Source of the DNA: Clostridia bacterium | Lineage (GTDB): Bacteria > Bacillota > Clostridia > TANB77 > CAG-508 | Length of the DNA: 64,000 bases | Assembly: GCA_017515985.1 (NCBI GenBank) | Contig: JAFWDV010000009.1 | Span: 46,832 to 110,831, forward strand | Reading direction: 5' to 3' | Shown: piece after piece, positions 10,883 through 64,000 of the stretch | Numbering within the stretch: the first letter of the stretch is position 1 | Layout: each line of letters starts with the position of its first letter | Made by a program: the position numbers and the translations under genes | The notes under the pieces: generated by a model | Database searches by the model: none | Seen by the model: only the letters and a program-made list of their open reading frames with translations | Told to the model about the DNA's origin: nothing

Positions 10883-10931
10883 TTTAATAAACCTGAAAAA
10901 ACAAACAACAAAGAAATTTTCCACAAAAAAA

Positions 10932-10957
10932 ACTGTTTGAATCATCTTTCAAACAGT
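10932..10957. terminator. bidirectional rho-independent terminator
   Basis: perfect 10-bp stem actgtttgaa / ttcaaacagt flanked by A-tract and T10-tract; just downstream of 10981..11991. Confidence 0.6.
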
Positions 10958-10980
10958 CTTTTTTTTTTTATTATTTAATT

Positions 10981-11991: not shown

Positions 11992-12081
11992 AACTATTAT
12001 ATCACTTTTTTAAAATTTGTCAAATTTTCATAAAAATGTTTAATATTTATATTGTAGGGAAATACTGTCTATTACTTATTT

Positions 12082-12909
12082 TTACATCCCTGTAAGGCTT
12101 ATTACATATTCTTCTTTAGTATCTTCCTCTACTGCATTTTTTAGTTTTTTAACTGCTTCTTCTTTTGTATATTGCTCTGTATAAAGTGGTAATTCACTTT
12201 CTTCTATGGATTGTACATTTACACATAATTGATCTTTAAATCCAGCCTCATTATCTTCTTTACTTCTGTTCCAATACTGAACAATATACATCTGCAATTT
12301 TTCTGTATTTAAAAATGTATAATTATACCATCTATTTGAAGACTCATCTTCATTTTCATCTTTTGTTTTGTTTATAAGATAATTATATTCTAGATTGTTT
12401 ACTATATTATCCATTTCCGCTAAGTTTTTTGAAAGAGTTCCATAAATAGCTGTATCATCAATTTTTAGTATTTTATATAATTCATCAAATATTTCATCTT
12501 TTTCATCAACTGAATAAACAGCATAAGCATTATGCATATCAAACTCAATATAATATTTACTTCCTGTAGTTTCCCCAAGTTTATCCTGCACTTTAGAGCT
12601 CATAACAAATTCTTTGAAATTTGGAAAATCGTTAAGATTCATACTATCTTTGCTATATCTAGTATTTCCTTGCTCATCACTCACATTATAATTAAATAAA
12701 CCTTCTTTAGTACTTATGTGTACACTTTCTCTATCAAATCCAATGTGTATAGATTCACACTCTTCATATTTTTCTGGCTTTTTGAAAACCTCTTCTTGGC
12801 CCTCTACGTCACCGTTATTTACAGCATTATTTTCATTATTCTTCTTACATCCTGTTAAACACATTATTCCAACTATCACCATAATCATTAAAGGTATTAT
12901 TTTTTTCAT
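12082..12909 (-). CDS. lipoprotein, function unknown
   Basis: 275 aa; lipobox LTGC after signal peptide. Confidence 0.5.
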   Translation of the reverse strand: MKKIIPLMIMVIVGIMCLTGCKKNNENNAVNNGDVEGQEEVFKKPEKYEECESIHIGFDRESVHISTKEGLFNYNVSDEQGNTRYSKDSMNLNDFPNFKEFVMSSKVQDKLGETTGSKYYIEFDMHNAYAVYSVDEKDEIFDELYKILKIDDTAIYGTLSKNLAEMDNIVNNLEYNYLINKTKDENEDESSNRWYNYTFLNTEKLQMYIVQYWNRSKEDNEAGFKDQLCVNVQSIEESELPLYTEQYTKEEAVKKLKNAVEEDTKEEYVISLTGM

Positions 12910-12966
12910 AAGTAACCCTCCTTATATTTTCATTCATATGTATATTAAAAACACTTCTATATAAAT

Positions 12967-15108: not shown

Positions 15109-15121
15109 AAATTCTACGACC

Positions 15122-32655: not shown

Positions 32656-32729
<74 letters not shown>

Positions 32730-35382: not shown

Positions 35383-35456
<74 letters not shown>

Positions 35457-35480: not shown

Positions 35481-35554
<74 letters not shown>

Positions 35555-43818: not shown

Positions 43819-44177
43819 TGGTGGAGCTGAGGAGAATCGAACTCCTGTCCAATAACCTTTCCATATAGACTTCTCCGAGTGCAGTTTGTTATCAAAATTT
43901 CCAACACAAACTAGTTAGCAAACAAACTTATTTGCATTGTAGCTATTTAAAGTACCCACTATTCCCATAGCATGAAATAGCTTCGTTTCCCACTAAATCA
44001 ACGCCTTATTCTACAACGTGGGCATTATAGGTAAGACGCGCCGCAAAAATTAAGCAGCGTAAGCTAATTCTTCGTTATTAGCGTTTATATTTATTTTGCT
44101 TTTTTATAGTGGCCAAAGCAACCATCCACTACTCGCTATCTATACTTCTAGATTACTGTCGAAACCGTTACAGCCCC
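43819..44177 (-). ncRNA. ssrA: tmRNA (SsrA)
   Basis: 5' GGGGCUGUAACGGUUUCGACAG and 3' GGACAGGAGUUCGAUUCUCCUCAGCUCCACCA tRNA-Ala-like ends with G3.U70; internal tag ORF ...GCUAAUAACGAAGAAUUAGCUUACGCUGCUUAA (ANNEELAYAA-stop); TTGCAA-17-TATAAT promoter upstream. Confidence 0.85.
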
Positions 44178-50009: not shown

Positions 50010-52502
50010 TTATTCAATAATTTCTGGATTGTCATTTTTTATCATATTTACCAAATTTTCTCCGCTAAAATTAAACTTAGTAATATAACCATCCAAATAG
50101 CTTGCCTTCTCTTTTAAAGCTTCAACATCATCGTTTATATATATTTTTGATTTTCCTTTTCCGTTTTTAGCTTCTTGCACTAAATTTGAAACAGGTGAAT
50201 TACCATCAAATGCCAAAACAATAGATGGTCTACGTTCAAAAATCTCATAATTAAAGCTTTTATAGATTCCAAGTTCTTCTTGCTCTGTTGAAATACAAAC
50301 ACCACTTAAATTATCGCTTAATAGTTCCTTTGCCAAGTCTTTGTCAATTTTCTTTGGAACTATAGCATCGATTTCAAAGTTTTTACCTAATTCTTTGCTA
50401 ATCTCCAAAATTGCCTTTTCATAACCCTGCATCTTGTGACCAATAACAAAATATGCTTTTTTATCATCTAAATTTCTAACTAATTCTGTTAAAACTTTCT
50501 TTGCTTTATTATCTAGAATTGTTTCTCTTCCTAATGTGTTAAAGCTACCACCTGCAATAATTATTGGGATTTTATCCATTGGAAGTTTTACAATTTTTTC
50601 TTTAAATATATCATCCGAGTTTACATCTGTATCTTTTCCAATTTTAAAAGCTCTATTTTTATTTTTTTCAATTTCAAGCTCTTGCTCTTCTAATATAGCA
50701 TCTTTGATATTTCTGCCATTAAGCCACTCCTCAAATTTCTTAGCTTTTTCTTTAAAATATTTTTCGTTTTCTGCAAGTAACTTATTTTCAACAGCTTTCA
50801 TCTTTTCTAAATCTTCACTGCTTAGGTCAAGTAAGTTTGTAAGAGCCATTTGCTCTTCCATACAATCTGTACCATAAAATCCACAACCATCTGACCCTTG
50901 AACGCAGCTAACATCATTAGCAAGATATTTTTTTATTGGATGTAAACTTACTTCCGTTAGATTATTCAAACGAACATTAGAAGTTAATTGGAATTCAAGT
51001 ATAATTCCATTTTTCTTCATGGTATTTATAAGATTTTTTCCTTTTTCAGATTCAACATCAATACCGTATAACCCATGACCTAATCTGCAACGAGGCATCC
51101 TTTTTCCTTTTGGAACAGATTCCATTATACACTCAACAGATTTTTCGACATTAGCTCTCAAACAATCATTTTCTCCAGCATGAATTTTTACAGTAAATCC
51201 ATTATCTTGCTCTACAGCATATTCTACAAGCTCCTTTATCACAGGCTTAAATTTATAAATCTCATTAACTTCCTCACCGATTATATCACTACCAACAATA
51301 TATGGGCTCTTTGCAGCTACTTTAAATGCATCAAGTCCTTCCTTTAATTGTTGCTCCGACATAAGAGTTCTACTAAATGCACCTAGAAATCTTAATTTTA
51401 CTCCAGTTTCAGCCTCAATTTTTGGAAGAATTTCGTGAAGCTCCTGCATTATCTTTGCTCCTTCTTCACCCTTCCTTACAATCCATGTAACTGAAATTTC
51501 TGCATAATTTATACCCTGCTTTTTGTATTCTCTAGCAACCCAAAGAATCTTATCTTGTAATAAAGAATTATCTTTATAATTCTCGCTTTTTGAGTCCTCC
51601 ATCATTTTTAATAAATTTGCTTTAACATCTTTATCTGTAATCTGCTCTATCTTTTGCTTAGTAATCTCAATTTTGTCTTCACTTGATTTTCCCTTCAAAA
51701 AAGCATATCTATATAAATAAAGCTTTTCAAGATTTGTAAAAACTGCTTGCCCATCTTTTATTAAAACAAGACTATTTCTTATCTTTGCAATATTTTCTTC
51801 AACATCGTTTGGGTTATTTAAAATCAAATCAGCAAAATTAATATACGTCTCATCATCAATTTTTCTAATTAGTTTTTTTCCTGGTAAATCCTCATACATA
51901 TATTTTCTTTCGACTTCACATCTTTGTCTAAAAAGCTTATTTGCCTGTTTATCTGATAATTTCAAACCAAGCTTTTTGATATAATACATAGAATATTTTA
52001 TTTGATGTTTTATTCCAAGAGCAATTATGTCATCCGAATTTAAGTTTGCAAAGATATGCGTATGCAAATCTGTTCTGAACTTTTCCTTTTTAGCAATATA
52101 TGTTTTGATGATAGTCTTCTCAACAGGAATTTTATATTCTTTGGTTTGTGACATTAACGTCTTATTGATAGCTGGAATTTTCGCTTTAATAAAAACTTTT
52201 CCATCAGTATATATGTTAGCAATTTTGATTCCACCTAATCTAAAAATATAAACTTCCTCATTATCGGCATTAATAGCAGCAGGAATTACTCCTTTAATCA
52301 CCTTCATATCATTTTCATTTTTCTCAGTTTCCAATCCACAAATTCTTGCAAGATTTGTAATCAAATTACCAGTTTTATGATTTGGAGTTTCTATTATATA
52401 CGTTAATTCATCTTCATTTTCTCTATACAAATTAACAATTATATCTTTCTCTTTATCTAAATAAATCCTATCAAAAAATTCCACTTTAAAATCTCCTCTC
52501 AA
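50010..52502 (-). CDS. adenosine/AMP-deaminase-fold protein with N-terminal extension and C-terminal Rossmann-like (SLOG/LOG-like?) domain
   Basis: 830 aa; metal-ligand motifs in order DLHTH, KIHAGEN, RLGHGL, VQGSDGCG (TDD-like with second Asp replaced); C-terminal PIIIAGGSFNTLG ... AYFVIGHK block. Confidence 0.55.
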   Translation of the reverse strand: MRGDFKVEFFDRIYLDKEKDIIVNLYRENEDELTYIIETPNHKTGNLITNLARICGLETEKNENDMKVIKGVIPAAINADNEEVYIFRLGGIKIANIYTDGKVFIKAKIPAINKTLMSQTKEYKIPVEKTIIKTYIAKKEKFRTDLHTHIFANLNSDDIIALGIKHQIKYSMYYIKKLGLKLSDKQANKLFRQRCEVERKYMYEDLPGKKLIRKIDDETYINFADLILNNPNDVEENIAKIRNSLVLIKDGQAVFTNLEKLYLYRYAFLKGKSSEDKIEITKQKIEQITDKDVKANLLKMMEDSKSENYKDNSLLQDKILWVAREYKKQGINYAEISVTWIVRKGEEGAKIMQELHEILPKIEAETGVKLRFLGAFSRTLMSEQQLKEGLDAFKVAAKSPYIVGSDIIGEEVNEIYKFKPVIKELVEYAVEQDNGFTVKIHAGENDCLRANVEKSVECIMESVPKGKRMPRCRLGHGLYGIDVESEKGKNLINTMKKNGIILEFQLTSNVRLNNLTEVSLHPIKKYLANDVSCVQGSDGCGFYGTDCMEEQMALTNLLDLSSEDLEKMKAVENKLLAENEKYFKEKAKKFEEWLNGRNIKDAILEEQELEIEKNKNRAFKIGKDTDVNSDDIFKEKIVKLPMDKIPIIIAGGSFNTLGRETILDNKAKKVLTELVRNLDDKKAYFVIGHKMQGYEKAILEISKELGKNFEIDAIVPKKIDKDLAKELLSDNLSGVCISTEQEELGIYKSFNYEIFERRPSIVLAFDGNSPVSNLVQEAKNGKGKSKIYINDDVEALKEKASYLDGYITKFNFSGENLVNMIKNDNPEIIE

Positions 52503-52639: not shown

Positions 52640-53425
52640 TTATTTATTGTGAATATCAATTTGCATGTAAGGAACTGCTATTCCATTCTTCTCCATAACC
52701 TCTAAAATGCTTCTATAGGCATCTCTTCTAACCTGCCTTTTTTTGATTTGATCACATTGTATTTCTAGCAAATATTCAATACATGAACTTGCTAAATCTT
52801 TAACGCTTATATATCTACAATCAGATACACCATCGTTTTCTTTAATTCTTTCTGCAATGCTAAGCACAACATTTTCGGCCTTTTTTAAATTTACCTCATA
52901 TGGCATTGGCACACTTACATATACTAAATTCGAAACTTTTTCAATTTGCTCTATATTTCTATTGGCTACTGATAAAATGTTGCACGTAGCTAAATCCTGT
53001 ATCTTCGTGGTTTTTAACCCCATTTCAATAACCTTGCCCTCTATGTCTCCAAATTTAACTACATCACCAACCGTAAAATAAGAATCTGATAAAATAGTAC
53101 TACCTCTAATGATATCCTTAAGCCAATCTTGGACAGCTAGTCCAATAATAGCTCCGGCTATTCCAACTCCGGCAAGTAATGAGCTCACATCAACTCCATT
53201 TGCTTGTAGTAATATTAATACTGTAATTATTATAAAAAAGTATCTAACAGTACTTCTCATTACTTTTATGTACGTTTTACTTTTCTTATTTTTTACATTC
53301 TTTTCACTTTTATTAAATATATATGTACAAAATTTATAAACAATTATGCTTGCTATTACAATTATTAATGAATTTATAATATTTACATATTTTATACTAT
53401 TAATCAATTCTTGAAGATTATTCAT
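52640..53425 (-). CDS. MscS-family small-conductance mechanosensitive channel
   Basis: 261 aa; TM helices followed by GDVVKFGDIEGKVIEMGLKTTKIQDL beta-domain. Confidence 0.7.
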   Translation of the reverse strand: MNNLQELINSIKYVNIINSLIIVIASIIVYKFCTYIFNKSEKNVKNKKSKTYIKVMRSTVRYFFIIITVLILLQANGVDVSSLLAGVGIAGAIIGLAVQDWLKDIIRGSTILSDSYFTVGDVVKFGDIEGKVIEMGLKTTKIQDLATCNILSVANRNIEQIEKVSNLVYVSVPMPYEVNLKKAENVVLSIAERIKENDGVSDCRYISVKDLASSCIEYLLEIQCDQIKKRQVRRDAYRSILEVMEKNGIAVPYMQIDIHNK

Positions 53426-53593
53426 ATAAATTCTATCCTTTCTTTTATTATATACTTTTACATGTTATATTTTATTTGTTATGCATAATTTTATTATATT
53501 TGCTCTTGTTTTTTTATGTATACTATGTTATAATCAGAATATTCGATGGCTACAAGAGAATCTTGCTTCCTATGTTAAAGGAGGTCTTGTATT

Positions 53594-53863
53594 ATGAAAA
53601 CAATACAACCTATAGAAAATTATATTCCAGTAAAAGGAAGAGTCATTGAGCTTTCTGAGAGCTCCAATGGTAGTTTCGTGCTTACTAATTACTACGAAAA
53701 CGAGTTCGGTAACTACGAAGGCACTGTAGAGAATGAGTTAACTCCAGGAGAAATGGTTACAGTGTTTGGATGCAAAACATTTGAAGAAAGGCTGCGGCGT
53801 TTGCACTACTATTTTAAAAAGGCAGATTACATCTCTGAAAGTGCAATAGAAGCGATTCGTTGA
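53594..53863 (+). CDS. hypothetical protein
   Basis: 89-aa ORF with RBS AAGGAGG. Confidence 0.4.
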   Translation: MKTIQPIENYIPVKGRVIELSESSNGSFVLTNYYENEFGNYEGTVENELTPGEMVTVFGCKTFEERLRRLHYYFKKADYISESAIEAIR

Positions 53864-53918
53864 ATGGTTGAATGATGTTTATTTAGCAAGTAGCCCCGCC
53901 CACAAGATTCTCGGAGAA

Positions 53919-53960
53919 AAGACCTACAATCATATTGATGATATATGATTGTTAGGTCTT
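53919..53960 (+). terminator. long hairpin terminator
   Basis: aagacctacaatcatat / atatgattgttaggtctt stem followed by tttctttt. Confidence 0.5.
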
Positions 53961-54025
53961 TTTCTTTTATTTTACAATATTCATGTAATTAACATTTTGA
54001 AATAATTCCTAAAAATTATTCATAT

Positions 54026-55337
54026 TTAATCCAACCTTTCGTTCATTATTATATTCGCTGCAACTTCATATCCCATTTTTATTGCATAATTCATTCCCCT
54101 ATCTTCAGGGTATATTTGCGCCATATTAGCCATAAAAATCCCATTTTCTTTCATTTGTATATCTAAAATATTATGAGAGTAATTCGTAGTAATAACTGGT
54201 TGAGCACAATCTTCCTCAAAACATTTTAACTCAATTATATCACCATCATCAAAACCATTTCCAATCTCTTTCAAATATTTATTATACTCTTCAAAAAGTT
54301 GTTTTTCATCTAATGCATACAGTCTATCATTTTTATCCATATAATTTGAAACATATATTAGATGAGCACCACCATATTCATTGCAATCTATCATATTGGT
54401 ATGTTCAATAATTCCTCCAAATGGTATATAATCACAGCCTATATTAATCCAATAAAATGGAGAAAATGATTTCTTTGAAAATATCAATAATGTCTTTGCA
54501 CACGTATATTTTAAATTATTCATTTTATTAATCTCTTCACTACTTAATACATCCTTAAGTATTTTTTTCGAAATATCATAAGAAACTGTGCTAACAACAT
54601 AATCAAATTCTTTAGACTCATTACTTGTTTCTACAACATACTTTCTTCCGTCTTTACTTACACTTTTAACTTCCTCGCTAGTTTTTATTTTGCAATTATT
54701 TTTTAAAAGATACTTCTCAATTTTTTGAGTTAACCTTTCATAACTACCATTTAAGTAGCCAAGTCTTTCTCCGTCAGCCTCTGACGAAGAGCCTCTGAGT
54801 TTTATCTTTCCCCATAGCCATGCCATAGAAATCTTATCTTTGTTATTTCCAAACTTAGAAAATAATAGTGGCTCCCATGTTTTCTTGTAAACATTTTCTC
54901 CACAATTTTTTATCACCCATTGCTCTGCAGTGTATCTTTCGATTTTTTTATAATCATTAATCAGTTTTATTTTTATCACACTAAAACCAAACCTGATTTT
55001 TTCTATAAATGATAATGGTTTATACTTTAGTAAAGACGTCGGCGTACCAAATTCATATAGCCCATCTTTTGAATAATACGCCATTTTAGTTTTATTCCAC
55101 AGCATTTCATCCAATAAATCAAATTCTTTTAGTAGTTCAATTACATATTTATCGCTTTTAAAAATATGTCTATAATGCTTTTCAATTTTGGTTCCATTAT
55201 AGCTTATGCACTTTGCCATTCCACCGAATTTTATCCGTTTTTTCATATATTGTAACTTCAAAATTATTTTCTAAGAGTTTCTTCGCACAGCATAAACCAG
55301 TATATCCGCCACCAATGATTGCAATTTTTTGTTTCAC
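54026..55337 (-). pseudogene. FAD-dependent amine-oxidase/protoporphyrinogen-oxidase-like oxidoreductase, interrupted by a +1 frameshift at about 55221-55232 (or sequencing error)
   Basis: GTG start overlapping upstream stop (TAGTG) with RBS GGAGGA; frame A encodes VKQKIAIIGGGYTGLCCAKKLLENNFEVTIYEKTDKI then stops; frame B continues GGMAKCISYNG... (track ORF 54026..55261). Confidence 0.55.
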
Positions 55338-56812
55338 TAATCTTCCTCCTCTAAGTCTTTTCTTACGTATATATAACCGCTCTTTGCCGTATATTTATCA
55401 AATAAAATATTTTTTATTTGTTGTTCATAATAATTAGCTTTTTTACTTCCAATAAAATGCATAGCATTCACGATAAATTTAGGAGAGCTCCTATTTATAT
55501 CTTCAATTACCTCGTCTGCTATTTCTTCATCCTCATAAGCAACTGGTATTTGAAAAAGATATTTTCCAGAATACTGTCTATCTGTCATTAAATATATATA
55601 AGCTCTATTACCTAATATTAAAACATCATCTTCTGGTCTAGTAACATAACATATTTGTTTTAAATCATTTAAATAATCATTCATATTTTTATAAAGCTCT
55701 TTTTTCTCAATCTGTATATTAATGTATCCTATAATAAATACAACACACGTAAAAAACGTTATACAACTTATTGCCTTTTTTGATTCAACATATTTTAAAA
55801 TGATTCCAAGTGGAATAATAAATGTTGGTATCATTGAAATTAAATAGTGGTTATACGCTCTACGTGGCATGATAACCAGGATAAATGCTATAACAAAATA
55901 TAATATGCCGAATTTGGCTAATTTCATTTCATTTTTATTTATTCTTTTTCTAAGTATGAATATGACCAAATATAGGGCAGCAATCAAAACAAGAATAAAA
56001 TTCGTTTCCAAAACAAAATACATTATCACATCTATTATAGCCTTTTTCTCACCGCCTAAGTACTTTAAATTAAATAGTATATAGCATTTGAAGAAATCGT
56101 ACAAAGCATTATTCGCTATAAAATAAATGATTACTGGCAAAAATACTACAAAAACTCCAAGAGCACTAAATAATATCATTTTTAATAACTCTTTTATTTT
56201 CTTTGCTCTAATCTGTTTTATAAGCATATAAACATAAAACAATACCCAAAGAATTGTTAAATTCGGTCTTAAAAGTAAAACAACAGAAAAACAGGTAGAA
56301 GTTACAACCGCTTCTTTGTTTCTAAATGAATTACCATCCATCAAATATTTAATTATATAATATAGTGCTATAAGCGTAAACGGTAAAGCTATACTTTCTG
56401 TGCATGGATTCTCATTAGCGATCCTAATCATGAAAAACAAACAAGTTAGTATAACGATTAAGATTTTCCACTTATCTTTAACAATTAGTTTTGCTATTAA
56501 GTAAATCATATATATTGATATAATATTACATACAAGGTCTAGTATAAATAATCCAGGCTGTCCTGCAGTTAAATATCCTATACTATAGAACAGATATAGT
56601 ATAGGTCCTTTGTGATCAAAAACATCCCTATATATAATTTTTCCCTGTCCAATTGCTTTTGAAATATTTGTCCATACAGCAACATCGATGCTTAAAAAGC
56701 CATTTTTCTTTAAGTGTACATAGTTACAAAATGTTACTAGTATCGCTATTATAATGATTGAAATATATACTGCCGGAGTTCTTTTTAAATTTTTAAATTT
56801 TTTAAACATCAT
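55337..56812 (-). CDS. GT-C fold membrane glycosyltransferase (ArnT/PMT, GT39/83-like)
   Basis: 491 aa, about 11 TM helices; first extracytoplasmic loop RDVFDHKGPILY resembles ArnT/PMT DE-type motif. Confidence 0.55.
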   Translation of the reverse strand: MMFKKFKNLKRTPAVYISIIIIAILVTFCNYVHLKKNGFLSIDVAVWTNISKAIGQGKIIYRDVFDHKGPILYLFYSIGYLTAGQPGLFILDLVCNIISIYMIYLIAKLIVKDKWKILIVILTCLFFMIRIANENPCTESIALPFTLIALYYIIKYLMDGNSFRNKEAVVTSTCFSVVLLLRPNLTILWVLFYVYMLIKQIRAKKIKELLKMILFSALGVFVVFLPVIIYFIANNALYDFFKCYILFNLKYLGGEKKAIIDVIMYFVLETNFILVLIAALYLVIFILRKRINKNEMKLAKFGILYFVIAFILVIMPRRAYNHYLISMIPTFIIPLGIILKYVESKKAISCITFFTCVVFIIGYINIQIEKKELYKNMNDYLNDLKQICYVTRPEDDVLILGNRAYIYLMTDRQYSGKYLFQIPVAYEDEEIADEVIEDINRSSPKFIVNAMHFIGSKKANYYEQQIKNILFDKYTAKSGYIYVRKDLEEED

Positions 56813-56901
56813 TTGTGCAAAATCTCCTATTTCTTATGTTTTATCATCTTTTCTTTTAAGTGGTTTCGATAAAATGTGGTTATAATATAACTTTCTTACA
56901 G

Positions 56902-57195
56902 TTAACTATTATATTTCCTATATTCTTTTATGTTTACTATAAAATTATCATAAAACTCTTTTACACAACTTGATAATTCTATATATATTTTTTCTTCTTC
57001 TGGGAAAGAGTGAATTGCAAAATGGCTTTCCGCAAGTAAAAACAGTCCAGTATATCCTATTGGCTCAAAATAATGTTCTGTTTTTTTCAAAATTTTAAAG
57101 CCACTTTGAACTAGCATTTTTTCACATTTTTTTACAAATTCTTTTTCGTCTTCATATTTAATCCAATCATAGTAATTATACATTTTAGCTTTCAA
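56902..57195 (-). CDS. speH: S-adenosylmethionine decarboxylase proenzyme, SpeH type (class 1b), short form
   Basis: 97 aa; LLAESHFAIHSFPEE self-cleavage/pyruvoyl site and ELSSC motif. Confidence 0.7.
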   Translation of the reverse strand: MKAKMYNYYDWIKYEDEKEFVKKCEKMLVQSGFKILKKTEHYFEPIGYTGLFLLAESHFAIHSFPEEEKIYIELSSCVKEFYDNFIVNIKEYRKYNS

Positions 57196-57205
57196 TTTTT
57201 ATTAC

Positions 57206-58729
57206 CTACCAATCTATAACGTCTTTATTATAATATTCAATTAATTTAGGCTTAAAGATATCATTGATTTCTAATTTATCCATTTCTACCATCTCGTCTT
57301 TTCCAAAATTAAACATTAAACCAATATTTTCATTATTTAGATATTTAGTATCTACTTGTAATTCTTTTATATTTGTTTCTCCATTATATGCTAAGTTAAA
57401 ACCCCATTCGCCAAAACTAGGGACTTGCAAATGATATGGTTTTACATTTTCAAATTGTGTAGCAATCGTTTTATTAATACACCAATATGAATTTTTAGCA
57501 TAATAAGGACTAGTTGATTGACATACCATAACTCCATCTTCATTCATTATACTTTTTATATAATTGTAGAAAACATTTGTATATAATTTATTTAATGCCT
57601 CAGAATTAGGATCTGGTAGATCTATTATTACAACATCATATTTTTTATTTGTATTTTGTACAAATATATATGCATCTTCATTTATTATACTTAACTTATC
57701 ATTATCAAGTGAATGATTATTTAATGTTGAAATTAATTTATTATTTCTACATAAATCTGTCATTTGTTCATCAATATCTACAAGAGTAATATTTTTTATA
57801 TCCTTATATTTTAGTAATTCTCTTACTGCTAGTCCATCTCCTCCACCAAGTATAAGTATTTCATCATGTTTATTAGCATAAAGCATTGGTATATGTACTA
57901 ATGCTTCATGATATCTATATTCATCTTTACTACAAAATTGAAGATTTCCATCTATAAAAAGTCTTATATCGTCTTTGTGCCTTGTCATAATAATCTTTTG
58001 ATAATTTGTTTGCTTAGACAATATTATTGAATCCCTATATAGTCCATTTTCAATGTGATCTGCAAGAAATCTACCTGTGCATAGAATAATAATAAATATT
58101 CCTAAAACAATAATAACCAAATTTCTAATTATTGAATATTTTATAATAAATGATTTATATTTTACTACTATCAATAATGCTACAAAAATATTTATTGTTC
58201 CCATTAGCAATGTAGTTGTAATATATCCTAAGTTTGGTAATAAAATTAAAGGAAAAATTAACGAACCAATTAATCCACCCAAATAGTCGAAAGAAAATAT
58301 ATTAGCTAAATTATTTCTAACATCACTTTTGTTTTCTTCAATTATTCTGGTTAATATTGGAATCTCTAGCCCAACTAGTATTCCAATCATTATAATCAGT
58401 ATGTACATTATTAGATGATATATAGATGTGTAAATGTTAGAAAAGAACAATATCAAACTAGATAATCCTCCAAATATTCCAACAAATAATTCTATATATA
58501 CAAATCTATTAAATAATTTACTTTTTATTTTTTTAGATAAGTATGAGCCTATTCCCATTGCAAACATATATAGTCCAATTGTAATTGAAAATTGAGTAAT
58601 ACTATCTCCTAAAAGATACGAACTTATACTACTAATAATTAATTCATATATAATTGAACAAATGGATATTAAGAATGTTGTCATCAGTATTAATCTATAG
58701 TCAAAGTCTTTTCTTTCTTTATCGCTCAT
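57206..58729 (-). CDS. polyamine aminopropyltransferase (spermidine-synthase-like) fused to an N-terminal ~200-aa polytopic membrane domain
   Basis: 507 aa; 6-7 N-terminal TM helices; C-terminal fold with ILILGGGDGLAVREL (GGGDG) and VIIDLPDP motifs. Confidence 0.7.
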   Translation of the reverse strand: MSDKERKDFDYRLILMTTFLISICSIIYELIISSISSYLLGDSITQFSITIGLYMFAMGIGSYLSKKIKSKLFNRFVYIELFVGIFGGLSSLILFFSNIYTSIYHLIMYILIIMIGILVGLEIPILTRIIEENKSDVRNNLANIFSFDYLGGLIGSLIFPLILLPNLGYITTTLLMGTINIFVALLIVVKYKSFIIKYSIIRNLVIIVLGIFIIILCTGRFLADHIENGLYRDSIILSKQTNYQKIIMTRHKDDIRLFIDGNLQFCSKDEYRYHEALVHIPMLYANKHDEILILGGGDGLAVRELLKYKDIKNITLVDIDEQMTDLCRNNKLISTLNNHSLDNDKLSIINEDAYIFVQNTNKKYDVVIIDLPDPNSEALNKLYTNVFYNYIKSIMNEDGVMVCQSTSPYYAKNSYWCINKTIATQFENVKPYHLQVPSFGEWGFNLAYNGETNIKELQVDTKYLNNENIGLMFNFGKDEMVEMDKLEINDIFKPKLIEYYNKDVIDW

Positions 58730-58730
58730 T

Positions 58731-58937
58731 TTATAAAACCCCTGTCATTATTATTCCAATTGCTATAAATAATCCAAATAACATAACTCCTACAGCTTTA
58801 TTATGATTATCTATTTCCTCTGATAAATTAAAATGTTTTTTATACATTTTTTCTAATATTTTATACCCTATTAGGCAAAAAATAAGCCCTATAGCAACAT
58901 ATATTATCATTTCTAAAATCTTAACCATTATATCCAT
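58731..58937 (-). CDS. DUF350-like two-TM mini membrane protein
   Basis: 68 aa; paralog of 58947..59153. Confidence 0.5.
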   Translation of the reverse strand: MDIMVKILEMIIYVAIGLIFCLIGYKILEKMYKKHFNLSEEIDNHNKAVGVMLFGLFIAIGIIMTGVL

Positions 58938-58946
58938 AATTTCCTC

Positions 58947-59153
58947 CTATTTTATTACTGTGCTGACTATTAATGCAACAGAAATATAAATTCCAGCCAT
59001 AATAAATCCAGCACCAACATTTTTTTCTTTTAATTCTTTATTAAAATCATATGGAACAGCTAAATCAAATAAAAAAGTAGTAATAAACATTAATGCCAAA
59101 CCTATAGTTCCATATATTATAGTATTTAAAATTTCTATCCAATTTATATTCAT
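58947..59153 (-). CDS. DUF350-like two-TM mini membrane protein
   Basis: 68 aa; GTIGLALMFITTFLFDLAVPYDFNKELKEKNVGAGFIMAG pattern. Confidence 0.5.
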   Translation of the reverse strand: MNINWIEILNTIIYGTIGLALMFITTFLFDLAVPYDFNKELKEKNVGAGFIMAGIYISVALIVSTVIK

Positions 59154-59164
59154 ATTTTTTCCTC

Positions 59165-60226
59165 CTATTTTCCACTTGATGTTCCACCACCAGAGTAACT
59201 TCTACTATTAATACTTGACTGTCTTGCAGAACTAGCATAATTATAATATGATGTACTTCTAAATCTTCTTCTATAACTTCTATGATAATATGTATTATGT
59301 GATGAATGGTATGTTGTCCCCGAATCGTTTACATATTCTTTATTTGATATTTGTATATATATCTTTCCATCTTCATGCATATAAATATATGCATATTCAT
59401 TTTTGGTTTCTAAGGCATATCCATCTTTTTCCGTATTATTATCATCATCTATAACTTCCGTAATGCCTTCAGGTACTCCATCAATTATGTCTTTTACTGT
59501 TTCGTCTAAAGTATTTAATCTTGCCATATATATTTTAGCCTTTTTATTATTTGAATTGTTTGTAACTGAAGTTACATATGTATATTTACTCGTATTTTTA
59601 CTTAAATACTTATCCATTGATTTATTTACAAATATTCCTCCCAGTAAACTTCCTATAAAAGGAAAAAAGAATATTATTATAAAAAACAAAACCATAAAGA
59701 TACTAAATTTCGAAGAATTTGTTGTATTTTTTTTCAAATATTCTTTATCAATTTCATCTTTTATTTGGATTTGATAATCATTTATTTTTTTTCCTATAGT
59801 ATATTCTGTTTCATCACTCCATATTTCAATAGATATAATTTCATCTTTACTTTCTGAAATATAATCATAATATTTACATTTTTCATATGGATCTACGTCT
59901 GTTGAGCCAAAATAAGATTTTACTGTTGCAACTCCACTTTCAAATAATTCGTATTTTTTTCCGTTATCTTCAAATTCTATATTGTTAACATTAACACTTT
60001 TATTGTATCTAGAATATAAGTAAAATTCATTTTTGTTGTATTCGTCTTGTTCTATAGTTAGCCAGTATTTTTGATAATGATAACCATCTCCATTTGAATA
60101 TTTTTGTACCTCATACTCTTGCCATATCCATGAATCTTCTTTAAACTCAATCATATTATTAACAACATATTTTTGGCTATCAATCATAATAATTTGTCCA
60201 CGTCGTAATTTTTCCATCTTTTTCAC
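59165..60226 (-). CDS. DUF4178-like protein with TM segment and extracytoplasmic C-terminal domain ending in an S/Y/R-rich tail
   Basis: 353 aa; N-terminal ~150 aa paralogous to 60239..60679 (WQEYEV, GVATVKSYFG, IISIEIWSDE); TM FSIFMVLFFIIIFFFPFIGSLLGGIF. Confidence 0.5.
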   Translation of the reverse strand: MKKMEKLRRGQIIMIDSQKYVVNNMIEFKEDSWIWQEYEVQKYSNGDGYHYQKYWLTIEQDEYNKNEFYLYSRYNKSVNVNNIEFEDNGKKYELFESGVATVKSYFGSTDVDPYEKCKYYDYISESKDEIISIEIWSDETEYTIGKKINDYQIQIKDEIDKEYLKKNTTNSSKFSIFMVLFFIIIFFFPFIGSLLGGIFVNKSMDKYLSKNTSKYTYVTSVTNNSNNKKAKIYMARLNTLDETVKDIIDGVPEGITEVIDDDNNTEKDGYALETKNEYAYIYMHEDGKIYIQISNKEYVNDSGTTYHSSHNTYYHRSYRRRFRSTSYYNYASSARQSSINSRSYSGGGTSSGK

Positions 60227-60238
60227 CCCCTCGCTTAT

Positions 60239-60679
60239 CTAAGTGATACTTGATATGTCTACTTTATGACCTATACTTATTTCTTCATGTTGTCTCCATT
60301 TTTCTATAGATATAATTTCATTTTCATCAGTATCACACAAATATTCATAATACCTAACCTCTTCATTCATTGCTAAATCGCATGTTCCAAAACAAATTTT
60401 AACATTACCTCTACCTGTTTCAAACAAAGAATAAGTTTTATTTCTGAAGTTAATTTTTGTTGTATTTGTTTCCATATTTTCATTCAATTCTATATATAAT
60501 ATTGCTTTGTTTGATAATTCTACATTTAAATGATATTCTTCTTTAGTATCTTTTTTTGCTATCTTATACTCATACCAAAAAGAACTTTTTTCATTATATT
60601 TAACTTTATTTATTACTAAAAATATTTGATCATTAATCTTAATTTCTTGATATTGCTTTGAATCTAATAAATCTACCAT
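60239..60679 (-). CDS. DUF4178-like protein
   Basis: 146 aa; FWYEYKI, GRGNVKICFG, IISIEKWRQHE shared with N-domain of 59165..60226. Confidence 0.5.
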   Translation of the reverse strand: MVDLLDSKQYQEIKINDQIFLVINKVKYNEKSSFWYEYKIAKKDTKEEYHLNVELSNKAILYIELNENMETNTTKINFRNKTYSLFETGRGNVKICFGTCDLAMNEEVRYYEYLCDTDENEIISIEKWRQHEEISIGHKVDISSIT

Positions 60680-60836
60680 TTTCCACTTCTCTCATTTCAT
60701 TAAATTTTTTGAATAGTAATATATATCAATACATTGTAAATCTCCATCCCATATATCTTCGTCATAATTATCTACCAAGAAATTCTTTGTTGTTTTTTCA
60801 TATTTATCAAAACCTTGCTTAACATAGAATGGAATA

Positions 60837-61415
60837 TTATTTTCGCCATTCAAATCCGTCTGGCAAATTTAATGCATCTTTTTTCTTTCTTACATATCTA
60901 TCCTCTTCGCTAAACACGCATCCGCAATATTTTTGCATATATAACCCTTCTTCTTTTGCTTTATCATGGCCTGTCCAAAAACCATATCTAAAATCTCTAT
61001 ATAAGAATTCAACCCCATATTCTTTGCTATATTGTTCCATCAAATTTTTTATAAAATCATGTTTTTGATATATGCTATATAGCAAAGTTGAAGTAACATG
61101 TGTATAACCGTGCTCCTTAGCATATTCAAATGTCTTTCTAAGTCGTTTTGGATAGCAATAGTTCACACATCTTGCCTCAATATTATCAGACACATTTTTA
61201 CAAAATTCATCTAATCCATATTCATCCTCAAATATTGCTTCGATGTTTACCTTTTCACTATACATCTTTAGACAATCTCTTCTAGCTTCATATTCTTTAT
61301 ATGGATGAATATTTGGATTATACCAATATAGTGTTGGCTCAATTTCTTCAGCTCTTAGCTCTGAAATGCAATATACACTGCATGGAGCACAACATGTATG
61401 CATAAGTAATTTCAT
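60837..61415 (-). CDS. queH: epoxyqueuosine reductase QueH
   Basis: 192 aa; LLMHTCCAPCS N-terminus and Cys pattern of DUF208/QueH. Confidence 0.8.
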   Translation of the reverse strand: MKLLMHTCCAPCSVYCISELRAEEIEPTLYWYNPNIHPYKEYEARRDCLKMYSEKVNIEAIFEDEYGLDEFCKNVSDNIEARCVNYCYPKRLRKTFEYAKEHGYTHVTSTLLYSIYQKHDFIKNLMEQYSKEYGVEFLYRDFRYGFWTGHDKAKEEGLYMQKYCGCVFSEEDRYVRKKKDALNLPDGFEWRK

Positions 61416-61458
61416 AATTTCTTGTAAACTCTTCCTTTCTAATTATTTACCATATTCA

Positions 61459-62982
61459 TTAATTGCTATCTTCTGTTTTTTCCTCCGTCCCCAAAATTTC
61501 TTTGTTTTTATATACATCAAACGGCTCTTTACTTTCTACTAATTCCATGTTTTCTTTTATATATTTTCTAACTTCATTTGGATTTTGCCAATTAAGATAT
61601 CCCTCATACTTCAAAATTAAATATAAAGCATCTTCATTCTTTATTCTTTCAATTATCTTTTGCTCTCCGCTTCCTCCAAAATTTCCCTTACAAAACATAT
61701 CAAAATCTTTGTTATATCTGTCAATTGGTATCATATACATTGCAGCAGACGAATCCAAAATATACACTTTCTTTTCAGATTTTTTAATATAATCGTCAAT
61801 TTCACTAATCATTTTGTCGACATCGTTATCAATATATACATAATCAAAATGATTTTGAAATTTAAATTTAGTTATCCTGCCCAAAAACTCATTATGATTA
61901 TATTCTATCCATAATGTTAGAGCAATTGTAGAAAGCATTGTAAATATATTAATAAATTCTATAAAATACTTAAAGTTAAATTTTTCACCATTCTTAAATA
62001 ATAGGCTTAAAAGATAACCACTTAATATCCAAGATGGAATCATAGCAGTAAAAAAATGTTCCTTGTCGCTTATAGGAAAAACGATTGAAAACATCGCAAT
62101 ACTATAAGCCGTTAAAATATATAATATGCAGTCATCTTTTCTTTTAAATTTATTGACAATACTTATAATTACCGCTGTTATTAGTACTACAGGTACCATT
62201 ATCGCAAGTATTCTAATAATATAAGTTTTGTTTGTTAACAATTTTAAATATGGGATTTTATTAGAAAATGTTTTAACACCAAATACTGAATAATCCAAAA
62301 AGTCATCATAAGCATTTACTACATTCAAATAAATCAAAAAAGCTAAAATTGGTATTGCCATACCTAGTAATCTAAATAATATTTTTTTAAAACAATTCCT
62401 TATATTTCTTTTGTTTTTTATACAACATATTGGACAAATAACAACAAAAAAACAAATTATTAATCCAACAGACTGCTTACTGCACACAGATAATCCAGCA
62501 AGAATACCAATAAAGAAATCAACTATCCCCTTATTGCACTTGAGTATTTTTTGCTGTTTTACCTCAAGTAAGATAATTGCAAGTAGGAAAATCAAAACAA
62601 GTAAATTATAATTTAATGCTAAAAAATCATATATACATACAAACAAAAGTAATAATATTAGTCTTGATATTTCATTTTTTATTTCAAGTTTGTTAAAAAT
62701 CTTTGAGGCAAGTACAAAAACAATTACAGACATTATAATTGCAGATATTCTTGAAATAATAAGCTGTGATCCAAATATTTTTAATGGAATAGCCAATAAG
62801 AAACCTAAAAGCGGCGTTGAAACCATGCTTATATCTTTATATGGAATAAGTCCATCTGCTATACATCTAGACACATTGAAATTCCACATTTCATCTAAAT
62901 TTCCTAATGGTTTAATTATTATCACTATAGTAATTGATAGAATTAAACATAGCCAAAAGACTATTTTTTCCAACTTATTCAT
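61459..62982 (-). CDS. GT-C fold membrane glycosyltransferase (PMT_2/ArnT-like), paralog-type of 55337..56812
   Basis: 507 aa, about 12 TM helices; loop-1 LGNLDEMWNFNVSRCIADGLIPYKD DE-motif; soluble C-terminal domain. Confidence 0.5.
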   Translation of the reverse strand: MNKLEKIVFWLCLILSITIVIIIKPLGNLDEMWNFNVSRCIADGLIPYKDISMVSTPLLGFLLAIPLKIFGSQLIISRISAIIMSVIVFVLASKIFNKLEIKNEISRLILLLLFVCIYDFLALNYNLLVLIFLLAIILLEVKQQKILKCNKGIVDFFIGILAGLSVCSKQSVGLIICFFVVICPICCIKNKRNIRNCFKKILFRLLGMAIPILAFLIYLNVVNAYDDFLDYSVFGVKTFSNKIPYLKLLTNKTYIIRILAIMVPVVLITAVIISIVNKFKRKDDCILYILTAYSIAMFSIVFPISDKEHFFTAMIPSWILSGYLLSLLFKNGEKFNFKYFIEFINIFTMLSTIALTLWIEYNHNEFLGRITKFKFQNHFDYVYIDNDVDKMISEIDDYIKKSEKKVYILDSSAAMYMIPIDRYNKDFDMFCKGNFGGSGEQKIIERIKNEDALYLILKYEGYLNWQNPNEVRKYIKENMELVESKEPFDVYKNKEILGTEEKTEDSN

Positions 62983-63003
62983 AAATACATTCCTTCCAAT
63001 AAT

Positions 63004-63990
63004 TTATGCTTTCAATTCATACCCCATATGACTATATGCTGCAGGTAACGGGATTCTTCCCCTAGTTGTTCTTGAAATAAAACCAATTTGTATCAAATAC
63101 GGTTCATATACATCTTCAATTGTATCAACCTCTTCACCAACGGTTGTTGCCAAAGCATCAATTCCAACTGGTCTTCCACCATATTTTTCTATCATAGTCT
63201 CTAAAATTTTTCTATCTATTTCATCCAATCCAAGTTCATCTATTTCTAGTCTATTAAGTGCAATCTTTGTTAACTTTATATCAATATCATTATCTGAGAA
63301 AACAATTGCATAATCTCTAACTCTTTTTAATAATCGGTTAGCGATTCTTGGAGTACCTCTAGATCTTCTTGCGATCTCTTCTGCTGATTTATCATCAATA
63401 TTTACATCCAAGATTTTTGCTGTTCTCTTTACAATTGATTTTAAATCGTTATTATCATATAGCTCTAGTCTATTTACAATACCAAATCTATCTCTAAGAG
63501 GTGTTGATAATGCCCCTGCCTTTGTTGTTGCGCCAATTAAAGTAAATTTCGGTAAATCAATTCTTATAGACTTCGCAGTTGGACCCTTTCCAATAACGAT
63601 ATCCAAAGTAAAATCTTCAAGTGCCGGATATAATATTTCTTCAACGCTCTTGTTTAGTCTATGAATTTCATCAATAAAAACAACATCATTTTCTTTAAGA
63701 TTTGTTAACAAAGCAGCTAAGTCTCCAGCTTTTTCTATAGCTGGACCTGATGTAACCTTAATGTCAGCATTCATTTCATTTGCTATTATATTAGCAAGCG
63801 TAGTTTTTCCCAAACCTGGAGGTCCATAAAGTAAAACATGATCTAATTGCTCTCCACGTTTTTTTGCCGCTTCGATATAAATTTTCATATTCTCTTTAAC
63901 TTTGGTTTGTCCAATATATTCTTCTAATAATTTCGGTCTGATAGAAGTTTCTAAACTTTCTTCAACCCCATCTTCTAATTCAGGATTCAT
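63004..63990 (-). CDS. ruvB: Holliday junction branch migration ATPase RuvB
   Basis: 328 aa; [11 protein letters not shown] Walker A, DEIHRL, sensor/arginine-finger region. Confidence 0.9.
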
Positions 63991-64000
63991 TAATTGATTA

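Follow-up and report, generated by a model that had tools for sequence, protein, structure and literature searches.

The locus raises the question of whether eleven genes that follow one another on the minus strand, from ruvB to an amine-oxidase-like flavoprotein gene, form one pathway, or whether separate systems lie next to each other in the window (the whole 64,000-nucleotide stretch of Clostridia DNA that was analyzed). We consider it probable that two separate modules lie side by side here, an aminopropyl-transfer cassette (Module A, 56902-60679) and a group of envelope-glycopolymer genes (Module B).

Gene order and domain content of the locus

The positions of the open reading frames confirmed the gene order and shared strand described in an earlier note on this DNA (Table 1). 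The cassette comprises six genes: two for DUF4178 proteins, the second of which has a TM helix; two for half-DUF350 proteins; one for a fusion of a half-MFS domain with an aminopropyltransferase; and one for an AdoMet decarboxylase (AdoMetDC) homologue. The tight packing that had been noted holds inside the cassette, where gaps are 1 to 12 nt, but not at its edges, where the sole large intergenic gaps are found (157 nt between queH and the first DUF4178 gene, 89 nt between the AdoMetDC gene and GT-C#2). No structure comparable to the terminator hairpin (-22 kcal/mol, z = -7.5, followed by UUUUCU) was found in these two gaps, and in this genome neither an intrinsic terminator nor an obvious promoter was found between the cassette and the GT-C#2 and flavoprotein genes. 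The TAGTG stop/start overlap at 55337 is real, but the frame that opens there has only 46 codons and the flavoprotein gene is frameshifted.

Table 1. Positions of the genes and other features within the window.
Feature	Positions	Strand	Remarks
ruvB	63004-63990	minus	
GT-C#1	61459-62982	minus	507 aa, polytopic membrane protein
queH (epoxyqueuosine reductase), housekeeping	60837-61415	minus	Pfam QueH 183 bits
Cassette gene 1, small soluble DUF4178 protein	60239-60679	minus	146 aa
Cassette gene 2, DUF4178 + one TM helix + C-domain	59165-60226	minus	353 aa
Cassette gene 3, N-terminal half-DUF350	58947-59153	minus	68 aa, two TM
Cassette gene 4, C-terminal half-DUF350	58731-58937	minus	68 aa, two TM
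Cassette gene 5, TM-aminopropyltransferase fusion	57206-58729	minus	507 aa
Cassette gene 6, AdoMetDC homologue	56902-57195	minus	97 aa
GT-C#2, polytopic glycosyltransferase-like protein	55337-56812	minus	491 aa
Flavoprotein (amine-oxidase-like) gene, 0-frame part	55227-55337	minus	GTG start + 37 codons
Flavoprotein gene, shift site, 0-frame CGG codon	55224-55226	minus	
Flavoprotein gene, +1-frame part	54026-55225	minus	remaining ~399 residues
Intrinsic terminator hairpin, closes the gene string	53915-53962	minus	

Profile searches, which the earlier note had proposed as a check, supported its DUF350, DUF4178, spermidine-synthase, and AdoMetDC assignments, and all of the motifs it had named were found: GGGDG (295-299) and DLPDP (370-374) in the fusion protein, LLAESHF, and DVFDHKGP. 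The DUF4178 pair scored 55 and 63 bits in Pfam (54.9 for the 146-aa protein). This small protein is 34% identical to residues 11-149 of the 353-aa protein (E 5e-20) and, judging from the alignment, is a paralogue of its N-domain; a separate small copy lies upstream in about 30/80 related loci. The 353-aa protein continues after its DUF4178 domain with a single TM helix and a conserved alpha/beta C-domain, and its tail, which ends in GGGTSSGK, is invariant. Gene 3 (54 bits, positions 6-65 of 133) and gene 4 (46 bits, positions 70-132 of 133) match separate halves of the Pfam DUF350 profile, so that each corresponds to half of a normal DUF350, and the two products are 28% identical.

In the fusion protein, a half-MFS bundle and one further helix give seven TM helices in all, which precede a canonical dcAdoMet-type aminopropyltransferase domain that retains all catalytic residues of true spermidine synthases. 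The protein scored 151 bits with Spermine_synth and passed the equivalog cut-off of NCBIfam NF002956/PRK03612 (608 bits versus 472). The 97-aa protein passed the Pfam AdoMet_dc cut-off (50.6 bits), and its E56-S57, H62, and C77 align with E62-S63, H68, and C83 of the Thermotoga maritima enzyme (1tlu), by which it is a short class-1 pyruvoyl AdoMetDC homologue. Its role as an AdoMetDC must be tempered, since it falls below the TIGR03330 equivalog cut-off (42 versus 76) and some AdoMetDC homologues have become ornithine or arginine decarboxylases (PMC10407285). The analysis supports the proposal of a dedicated membrane-bound aminopropyltransferase with its own supply of dcAdoMet.

For Module B, the PMT_2 profile matched GT-C#2 marginally (26.7 versus 26.1) and GT-C#1 below threshold (17.4 bits); GT-C#2 also has a weak LA3751_2_3 family match and a precomputed assignment to PF27757 (Ccs4_N). 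GT-C#1 is a distant paralogue of GT-C#2 (23% identity over 418 aa, E 5e-9); its neighbors place it with the ruvB/queH-linked envelope locus, outside the cassette. The "amine oxidase" label of the earlier note is right as to the fold (PF01593, 64 bits for the +1-frame part), but it is a fold label only. By its match to NF005560/PRK07233 (410 bits versus a cut-off of 252, beginning at profile position 33), the flavoprotein is a PRK07233-family FAD oxidoreductase, with weaker NCBIfam matches to protoporphyrinogen oxidase and squalene/carotene desaturases.

Genomic association of the cassette with the GT-C and flavoprotein genes

In the model drawn from the earlier note, all eleven genes belong to a single operon-encoded pathway: the GT-C enzymes would glycosylate a lipid, glycan, or wall polymer, the fusion protein would add aminopropyl groups to it, and the oxidase would trim or oxidize it. 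We surveyed cassette loci from 80 Clostridia species, scoring co-occurrence by tblastn with the window's own proteins, and 90 loci with oxidase homologues; both surveys covered Clostridia-type relatives. DUF350 and DUF4178 accompanied the fusion gene in 77/80 and 76/80 loci, bearing out the claim that they are constant partners, and an AdoMetDC gene adjoined it, upstream or downstream, in 64/80. The neighborhood conservation that the note had anticipated does not extend to the remaining genes: GT-C#2 and the amine-oxidase-like gene were detected in 0/80 cassette loci, although highly divergent GT-C genes beside distant cassettes may escape tblastn, and the cassette was found in 0/90 oxidase loci. 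GT-C#1 accompanied the cassette in two of the 80, each time along with ruvB and queH, and was found in 11 oxidase loci that have no cassette.

In its 90 loci the oxidase usually had a GT-C-type membrane protein as its neighbor, in many cases with ruvB and queH as well, and queH is syntenic with ruvB and the GT-C genes in relatives. Where the oxidase is at least 50% identical, most Clostridia loci have a GT-C#2 homologue directly upstream of it (20 loci with a tblastn hit); in others, DUF2298 lies downstream or a different polytopic ORF is close by. A protein with at least seven TM helices adjoins the oxidase in 50 of the 72 loci with enough flank. Two loci (L089 and L175) preserve the order ruvB-GT-C-queH-...-GT-C-oxidase without the cassette. 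Conversely, the closest relative of the cassette (88% identity) is a five-gene cassette only, flanked by an integrase and a GH30 gene, and Acetivibrio cellulolyticus has a four-gene core.

From these two surveys, we read the window as a cassette set inside a ruvB-linked envelope-glycosylation locus. The eleven-gene pathway is thereby largely refuted as a conserved system, and we regard it as very improbable. It would account for the single strand and for a first detectable terminator that lies past the oxidase gene; GT-C enzymes act at the outer face, where the aminopropyltransferase domain is also predicted to lie; and Ravi 2024 mentions other cluster variants with a polyamine oxidase (PMC11237479). 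Against it, besides the two zero counts, stand the occurrence of the GT-C/oxidase/ruvB/queH context without the cassette, the unrelated setting of the closest cassette, and the oxidase itself, whose constant partner is a GT-C-type protein and whose more remote matches are to families with isoprenoid and tetrapyrrole substrates. As the DNA between the cassette and the GT-C#2 and oxidase genes contains neither an intrinsic terminator nor an obvious promoter, the three may be co-transcribed in this genome, and a lineage-specific functional link may exist. Under the two-module reading, GT-C#1, GT-C#2, and the PRK07233-type flavoprotein would form an envelope-glycopolymer module in a ruvB/queH/LtaS neighborhood, with the cassette placed in its midst in this lineage. 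The substrate of the flavoprotein would probably be the polyprenyl-linked donor of its GT-C partner, or else the product of that partner, rather than a polyamine.

The aminopropyltransferase cassette and its acceptor

Gene clusters that combine an MFS-like/SpdSyn-like fusion with a class 1b AdoMetDC and DUF350 were reportedly described by Li, Kurihara, Kim, Liang & Michael in 2019 (Biochem J 476:2579). A 7TM-spermine-synthase/YjfL(DUF350)/DUF4178 operon, with variants that include AdoMetDC, appears in Ravi et al. 2024 (PMC11237479), which refers to Li et al. 2019 on "aminopropylation of other substrates". According to citing papers, experiments showed that the bacterial fusion proteins have no part in making spermidine or spermine, a result that may or may not extend to the Clostridia clade. 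The cassette type and the idea of a non-putrescine acceptor are thus already published (Li et al. 2019; Ravi et al. 2024). The Clostridia cassette shares with those clusters the fusion architecture, the partner families DUF350, DUF4178, and AdoMetDC, and an acceptor thought to be other than putrescine. It differs in that DUF350 is split into two half-size genes, in its additional small DUF4178 paralogue, and in lacking a PspA/CesT-Tir dyad, a Ctha_1186 lipoprotein, and an ATP-grasp ligase.

Compared with the canonical soluble SpeE/SpeH of Bacillus subtilis and T. maritima and with the Thermus thermophilus polyamine aminopropyltransferase, the fusion protein adds an N-terminal half-MFS domain; the cassette has obligate membrane partners, and its decarboxylase is short, below the equivalog cut-off. 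An architectural parallel is fungal NHMT (AN4663; PMC10349129), an N-terminal histidine methyltransferase that resides in the membrane and acts on amino groups of secreted proteins. In NHMT, too, seven TM helices, spanning about residues 1-215, precede a domain with the spermidine-synthase fold. NHMT probably belongs to the fungal membrane/APT-like fusion family, whose only outside homologues are said to be these bacterial proteins. The acidic position of the GxG(D/E)G motif is an Ile in NHMT, and AdoMet is its methyl donor, whereas the fusion protein keeps GGGDG; because of this and its AdoMetDC partner, it should transfer aminopropyl groups. The SpeE2 of the Pseudomonas ISS locus is also a TM-fused SpeE-like protein within a multi-gene membrane locus, but it is about 848 aa long and its catalytic Asp residues are replaced by T, E, and P (PMC7298707). 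Since the window protein keeps the canonical residues, we place it in a different family.

The orientation of the catalytic domain is an addition of the present analysis and a prediction. Seven TM helices are present in the AF2 model, and in 62 fusion homologues the K+R counts are 2.8-3.5 for the N-terminus and even-numbered loops and 0-0.8 for odd loops. The secreted proteins modified by NHMT, with its like arrangement of domains, fit an outer-face position. From this helix number and positive-inside pattern, we infer that the catalytic domain probably lies on the outer face of the cell. An outward-facing domain is at odds with the cytoplasmic origin of dcAdoMet.

We hypothesize that the 97-aa pyruvoyl enzyme would produce decarboxylated AdoMet in the cytoplasm and that the fusion enzyme would transfer its aminopropyl group to an amine acceptor at the membrane, which, going by the published experiments on homologues, would be other than putrescine. 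The two 68-aa proteins jointly correspond to one four-helix DUF350 protein, and this pair and the two DUF4178 proteins would probably be subunits or substrate-handling factors. If the catalytic domain is outside, carrying dcAdoMet or the acceptor across the membrane could fall to the half-MFS domain, which would probably act as a dimer, to DUF350, or to both. The cassette could instead be the organism's ordinary route to spermidine or longer polyamines, with an enzyme that is merely membrane-anchored and with DUF350 and DUF4178 as unrelated or regulatory passengers. The intact catalytic residues would fit this, as would the NCBIfam name "polyamine aminopropyltransferase", the naming of TM-fused Rv2601 as a spermidine synthase in Mycobacterium tuberculosis papers, and the nearest solved structures, which are broad-specificity polyamine aminopropyltransferases. 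We nevertheless judge it improbable, given the experiments on bacterial fusions that citing papers relate, a near-obligate DUF350 and DUF4178 linkage that would be unexpected of a housekeeping enzyme, and the predicted outward-facing domain.

The split flavoprotein gene

The flavoprotein gene starts at a GTG preceded, 7 nt upstream, by the Shine-Dalgarno sequence AGGAGGA. Its 0-frame part encodes the FAD-binding beta-alpha-beta unit (IAIIGGGYTGL...VTIYEKTDKI), and the rest lies in the +1 frame. A single extra C (55226) makes a 0-frame CGG, and skipping it (ATT C GGT GGA) restores exact colinearity with unsplit homologues. Three independent metagenome assemblies of this species carry the identical frameshift, and in seven diverged sequences the insertion is at exactly the same position and creates CGG every time. 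In the window, CGG accounts for 0.16 of every 1000 codons; in related loci its rate is 0-0.9 per 1000, mostly 0-0.2.

This pattern makes the gene a candidate for programmed +1 frameshifting at a rare CGG, in which case the full-length flavoprotein would require a +1 ribosomal shift at a nearly unused codon. The P-site codon varies (AUU, GUU, CUU, GUA), which favors out-of-frame pairing in the A site over slippage. That the gene is instead a dead pseudogene, or yields two separately translated polypeptides, is possible but the less probable reading. Gene callers do annotate two ORFs, a +1-frame ATG or TTG lies a few codons ahead of the junction, and no stimulatory RNA element was found. Yet these start codons are a by-product of Tyr/Phe-Glu codons, are also present in an unsplit homologue (L091), and lack a Shine-Dalgarno sequence, whereas that of the upstream ORF is strong; a 37-residue Rossmann fragment would be unlikely to fold alone. 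The recurrent insertion and the substitution rates also weigh against decay: at a dS of 0.7-1.7, the main part has a dN/dS of 0.13-0.35 and no further disabling mutations, and the 33-codon N-fragment of split lineages has a dN/dS of mostly 0.12-0.38, so both pieces are under purifying selection.

Shifts to the +1 frame at rare or hungry codons are described for Ty3 of yeast, prfB of bacteria, and mitochondrial genes of glass sponges, in the last of which an added T or C on the 5' side of GGA yields a rare UGG or CGG (reviewed in PMC5009743). Unlike prfB, the oxidase gene has neither a stop codon nor a Shine-Dalgarno-like stimulator at the site. It resembles the glass-sponge cases in the extra nucleotide directly 5' of a Gly codon, in the very rare 0-frame CGG that results, and in a product colinear with unshifted homologues, and differs from them in that it encodes a flavoprotein and lies on the chromosome of free-living or gut Clostridia.

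The cassette and the genes around it

Pfam and NCBIfam profiles bore out the minus-strand gene string described in the earlier note, with agreeing ORF coordinates, and confirmed QueH, two DUF4178 and two DUF350 proteins, a spermidine-synthase domain, AdoMet_dc, and an amine-oxidase fold; the four motifs quoted there were all found. The spermidine-synthase domain stands behind a polytopic N-terminus (the fusion enzyme). The tight packing ascribed to the string is confined to the block that begins with the small DUF4178 gene and ends with the decarboxylase gene, where the gaps are 1 to 12 nt; gaps of 157 nt and 89 nt bound this block. An ORF does start at the TAGTG overlap at 55337, but it ends after 46 codons, and the rest of the flavoprotein lies in the +1 frame.

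Coordinates of the features discussed, in window positions
Feature	Position	Strand	Remark
tRNA-Gly(UCC) genes (three)	32656-32729, 35383-35456, 35481-35554	-	
tmRNA gene	43819-44177	-	tag ANNEELAYAA
A_deaminase protein	50010-52502	-	830 aa
Flavoprotein (oxidase) gene	54026-55337	-	PRK07233-type FAD oxidoreductase; split, shift site 55224-55226
GT-C#2	55337-56812	-	
Cassette	56902-60679	-	six genes
AdoMetDC homologue	56902-57195	-	97 aa
Fusion enzyme	57206-58729	-	507 aa
Tail of large DUF4178 protein	59165-59200	-	353-aa protein
GT-C#1	61459-62982	-	

Each of 80 species-representative cassette loci was searched by tblastn with every window protein. Matches were found to the DUF350 C-half query in 77 of the 80 loci, to the large DUF4178 protein in 76, to AdoMetDC in 64 (on the downstream side in the near clade and on the upstream side in a Lachnospiraceae clade), and to a separate small DUF4178 protein in about 30. 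GT-C#1 was matched in two loci, both with ruvB and queH, and neither GT-C#2 nor the oxidase was matched in any of the 80. A reverse survey with the oxidase as query yielded no cassette genes in any of 90 loci. Among Clostridia relatives with at least 50% identity, the oxidase usually follows a GT-C#2 homologue immediately or stands immediately ahead of a DUF2298 membrane protein, often with ruvB (13 loci), GT-C#1 (11), or queH (10) nearby, and two comparison loci from other genomes (L089, L175) carry ruvB, GT-C, queH, GT-C, and oxidase without the cassette. Across the whole oxidase family, 72 loci had sufficient flanking sequence, and in 50 of them a protein with at least seven TM helices is encoded within 2.5 kb on the same strand. 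In the source contig, the region immediately upstream holds LtaS and Alg13/14-like genes.

Taken together, the two surveys place the window's cassette within a conserved ruvB-linked envelope-glycosylation neighborhood. The proposal that the GT-C enzymes, the oxidase, and aminopropylation form one integrated pathway is thus not supported, with GT-C#2 and the oxidase absent from all 80 cassette loci and the cassette absent from all 90 oxidase loci. The name "amine oxidase" also fails in its functional sense: it describes the fold family only (PF01593; PRK07233, a "hypothetical protein"), GT-C-type neighbors dominate, and no cassette occurs in the 90 loci. With the GT-C and oxidase genes set aside as bystanders, a false lead is closed off and the genes that need joint study come down to six.

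The two GT-C proteins are distant paralogues and both polytopic; a conserved Y-[KR]-D loop motif, identified from the sequence, is common to them. Both match Pfam PMT_2 (gathering threshold 26.1) weakly, with 26.7 bits for GT-C#2 and 17.4 bits, below the threshold, for GT-C#1. Folding and inspection by eye located a strong terminator behind the oxidase gene (-22 kcal/mol, z = -7.5), and folding gave none in the 157-nt or 89-nt gap; cotranscription of the cassette with the neighboring genes is possible in the window genome but would not in itself point to a shared pathway. A terminator consensus scan returned nothing on the minus strand and failed to pick up the one behind the oxidase gene; the corresponding promoter scan carried no information in DNA this rich in AT (90 promoter-like sites versus 87 expected). 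Farther along the strand, the A_deaminase protein (Pfam adenosine/AMP-deaminase domain in the source contig annotation) is extended by a long stretch at its N-terminus, and about 250 aa at its C-terminus form a domain without assignment.

The window's own species has the same gene order in several gut/rumen-type metagenome assemblies. In the closest other species, at 88% identity, the block comprises only five genes (DUF4178, DUF350, DUF350, fusion enzyme, and AdoMetDC) and is flanked by an integrase and a glycoside hydrolase; Acetivibrio cellulolyticus has only the first four cassette genes. In the closest relative, a goat omasum MAG (RGIG2630, loci L001/L009, locus coordinates 7277-15212), a tyrosine recombinase gene lies upstream of the five-gene cassette, and a phage-type integrase and prophage-like genes lie downstream, which hints that the cassette is mobile between chromosomal sites. 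In the Lachnospiraceae-type loci (L051-L086), the AdoMetDC homologue precedes the DUF4178 gene rather than following the fusion gene, and a single DUF350-like tblastn match was obtained, so gene order, and possibly the DUF350 arrangement, differs between clades. The fusion enzyme family exceeds 8000 database proteins at E <1e-10, and its best named matches are "polyamine aminopropyltransferase" from uncultured Clostridia.

In the 2019 study of Li et al., thousands of class 1b AdoMetDC genes are said to co-occur with an MFS/SpdSyn fusion, and DUF350 reportedly clusters with them. The fusion enzyme, DUF350, and DUF4178 are co-located across genomes, as in the published cluster (Li 2019; Ravi 2024). 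Ravi et al. 2024 (PMC11237479) describe operons of a 7TM-fused spermine/spermidine-synthase-like protein with YjfL/DUF350 and DUF4178, and papers citing Li et al. 2019 report that homologues of the fusion enzyme do not make spermidine. No PspA or CesT domain, as in the proteobacterial archetype, was found by Pfam in the ten window proteins scanned; variants without the PspA-CesT/Tir dyad are also described by Ravi et al. 2024 (PMC11237479). The central inference of the earlier note, a membrane-localized aminopropylation pathway with its own supply of decarboxylated AdoMet (dcAdoMet), had therefore already been published (Li 2019; Ravi 2024). Its observations were largely correct and its core interpretation was correct but already known, and the novelty claimed for an integrated pathway did not hold. 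The cassette belongs to a known, functionally unsolved type and is a well-defined problem in a large family; of what is new here, the most interesting are a catalytic domain predicted to face outward and, conserved in the neighboring flavoprotein gene, a candidate +1 frameshift.

The split flavoprotein gene

The flavoprotein matches PRK07233 (NCBIfam) with 410 bits. Read in the 0-frame from GTG 55337, the gene encodes an FAD-binding unit (IAIIGGGYTGL...VTIYEKTDKI) followed by CGG TGG and, nine codons on, a stop. When the C at 55226 is skipped, the reading becomes GGT GGA ATG GCA and is exactly colinear with unsplit homologues (...EKTDSLGGIAKC...), and the predicted junction peptide of the shifted product is ...YEKTDKIGGMAK.... 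A sequencing error was ruled out because three independent assemblies of the window species agree in the split sequence and six further diverged sequences are split at this site too. Transcriptional slippage was rejected because there is no homopolymer at the site.

Split forms were found in seven diverged sequences, namely the window and six comparison loci (L089, L107, L175, L176, L177, and L178), with 59 to 69% protein identity for these six. All seven have a hydrophobic codon (ATT, GTT, CTT, or GTA), the extra C, and GGN GGN, which always makes a 0-frame CGG, and the extra C is absent from eleven unsplit homologues. The truncated form is seen in at least 24 of the 120 top-scoring database clusters; there GG is preceded by F, Y, or C, the residues that xTT-C, xTA-C, and xTG-C would give. 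In a neighbor-joining tree, one clade consists mostly of split forms interspersed with full-length genes, and split forms also occur elsewhere, which suggests that the split was repeatedly gained or lost.

Could the split gene simply be decaying? Among the split lineages dS is 0.7 to 1.7, and dN/dS is 0.13 to 0.35 in the main part and mostly 0.12 to 0.38 in the 33-codon N-fragment, indicating that both pieces are under purifying selection; a pseudogene is unlikely. Two separately made polypeptides are possible. A strong Shine-Dalgarno sequence precedes the upstream ORF; the ATG/TTG in the +1 frame has none and is a by-product of Tyr/Phe-Glu codons. In the long ORFs of the window, 3 of 18,269 codons are CGG, which accounts for 0 to 0.9 (mostly 0 to 0.2) per 1000 codons in related loci. 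The site thus combines what is expected of a +1 frameshift: conservation in position and sequence, a slow 0-frame codon, and purifying selection on both segments. From sequence, the gene is best read as a candidate for ribosomal frameshifting into +1 where CGG leaves the ribosome at a hungry codon. For the full proposal, that the gene is decoded by programmed +1 ribosomal frameshifting at a codon all but abandoned by Clostridia of about 25 to 30% GC, and that this is conserved and possibly gained more than once, we consider the chances about even.

A close precedent for the CGG shift site is found in glass-sponge mitochondria, where a T or C inserted 5' of GGA creates rare UGG or CGG codons (PMC5009743), and the recoding proposed here would resemble the mechanism of Ty3 and of these mitochondria. 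A mechanism of this type was not reported for bacterial chromosomal genes in the 2016 review (PMC5009743). If confirmed, the frameshift would be a rare test case, showing +1 recoding at a hungry codon as it occurs naturally in bacteria, and would offer a handle on the use of near-unassigned codons in low-GC genomes. An Rfam search of 53400-64000 (E <=1) returned no frameshift element and no riboswitch. The window contains three tRNA-Gly(UCC) genes and a tmRNA gene, and no tRNA-Arg gene within its 64 kb; abundant tRNA-Gly could favor out-of-frame pairing at the GGN of the shift site.

PRK07233-family flavoproteins elsewhere (L091/L092/L178 and many of L109-L170) are very often preceded or followed by large polytopic proteins, among them DUF2298 (about 770 to 800 aa, 14 predicted TM segments) and GT-C-like proteins (480 to 700 aa). 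This pairing looks widespread.

The fusion enzyme and its partners

The fusion enzyme matches NF002956/PRK03612 over residues 6 to 504 with 607.6 bits (equivalog cut-off 472). GGGDG (295-299), D370/D373, and Y273-H-E are invariant across 62 homologues and align to solved aminopropyltransferases, so that the acidic residue of GxG(D/E)G, the D-x-x-D-P catalytic pair, and the YHE tyrosine are all retained. The Asp of GGGDG is the residue that selects decarboxylated AdoMet. Aminopropyl transfer to a putative acceptor is the predicted activity of the enzyme. A PADLOC match to "mad2" of the MADS defense system (residues 280 to 439, E 6e-18) was rejected because there is no defense context; it most likely reflects the shared methyltransferase fold, and no other cassette protein matches a PADLOC defense model.

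The N-terminus is an MFS-like polytopic domain with seven TM helices in the AF2 model (pLDDT 86.5). K+R is 2.8 to 3.5 per loop in the N-terminus and loops 2-3, 4-5, and 6-7 and 0 to 0.8 in loops 1-2, 3-4, and 5-6, a pattern that fits the usual MFS orientation with the N-terminus inside and, with seven helices, predicts the catalytic domain to be outside the membrane. We infer from this topology that the catalytic domain is on the outer side. A further novel reading, weaker than that of the frameshift, is that the aminopropyltransferase domain would work outside the cytoplasmic membrane, with the half-MFS domain delivering dcAdoMet.

The fungal NHMT, which methylates the N-terminal histidine of secreted LPMOs, likewise has seven TM helices and a spermidine-synthase fold (PMC10349129). 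It has Ile in GxGxG, whereas the fusion enzyme has the dcAdoMet-selecting Asp (PMC10349129), and the fusion enzyme is outside the NHMT family. As a mechanistic analogue, NHMT supports an extracytoplasmic amine as the putative target. Together with the predicted outward-facing domain, it leads us to hypothesize an extracytoplasmic target amine, for example the N-terminus of a protein, the head group of a lipid, or a polymer of the wall. Pseudomonas SpeE2 of the ISS locus, considered as closest relative, was rejected on catalytic residues as a different family: it has T, E, and P at three Asp positions, whereas the fusion enzyme keeps the canonical Asp (PMC7298707).

The 97-aa decarboxylase scores 50.6 bits against Pfam AdoMet_dc (gathering threshold 25) but 42.4 bits against TIGR03330, the Bacillus subtilis type (cut-off 75.65), and because it is below this cut-off we term it an AdoMetDC homologue and not a proven SpeH. 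Its E56-S57, H62, and C77 are in register with the self-processing and catalytic residues E62-S63, H68, and C83 of Thermotoga maritima AdoMetDC. Neofunctionalized AdoMetDC homologues use ornithine or arginine instead (PMC10407285); the aminopropyltransferase linkage in 64 of the 80 loci favors AdoMet as the probable substrate. The two 68-aa proteins match DUF350 profile positions 6 to 65 and 70 to 132, one half each, and together they therefore correspond to one normal four-helix DUF350 protein. The large DUF4178 protein has a disordered C-terminal tail. Its last residues, ...GGGTSSGK, do not vary among 55 homologues, and neither do Y327, Y330, and S333-A334-x-Q336; as the protein constantly accompanies an enzyme that modifies amines, this free and conserved tail could serve as carrier or substrate.
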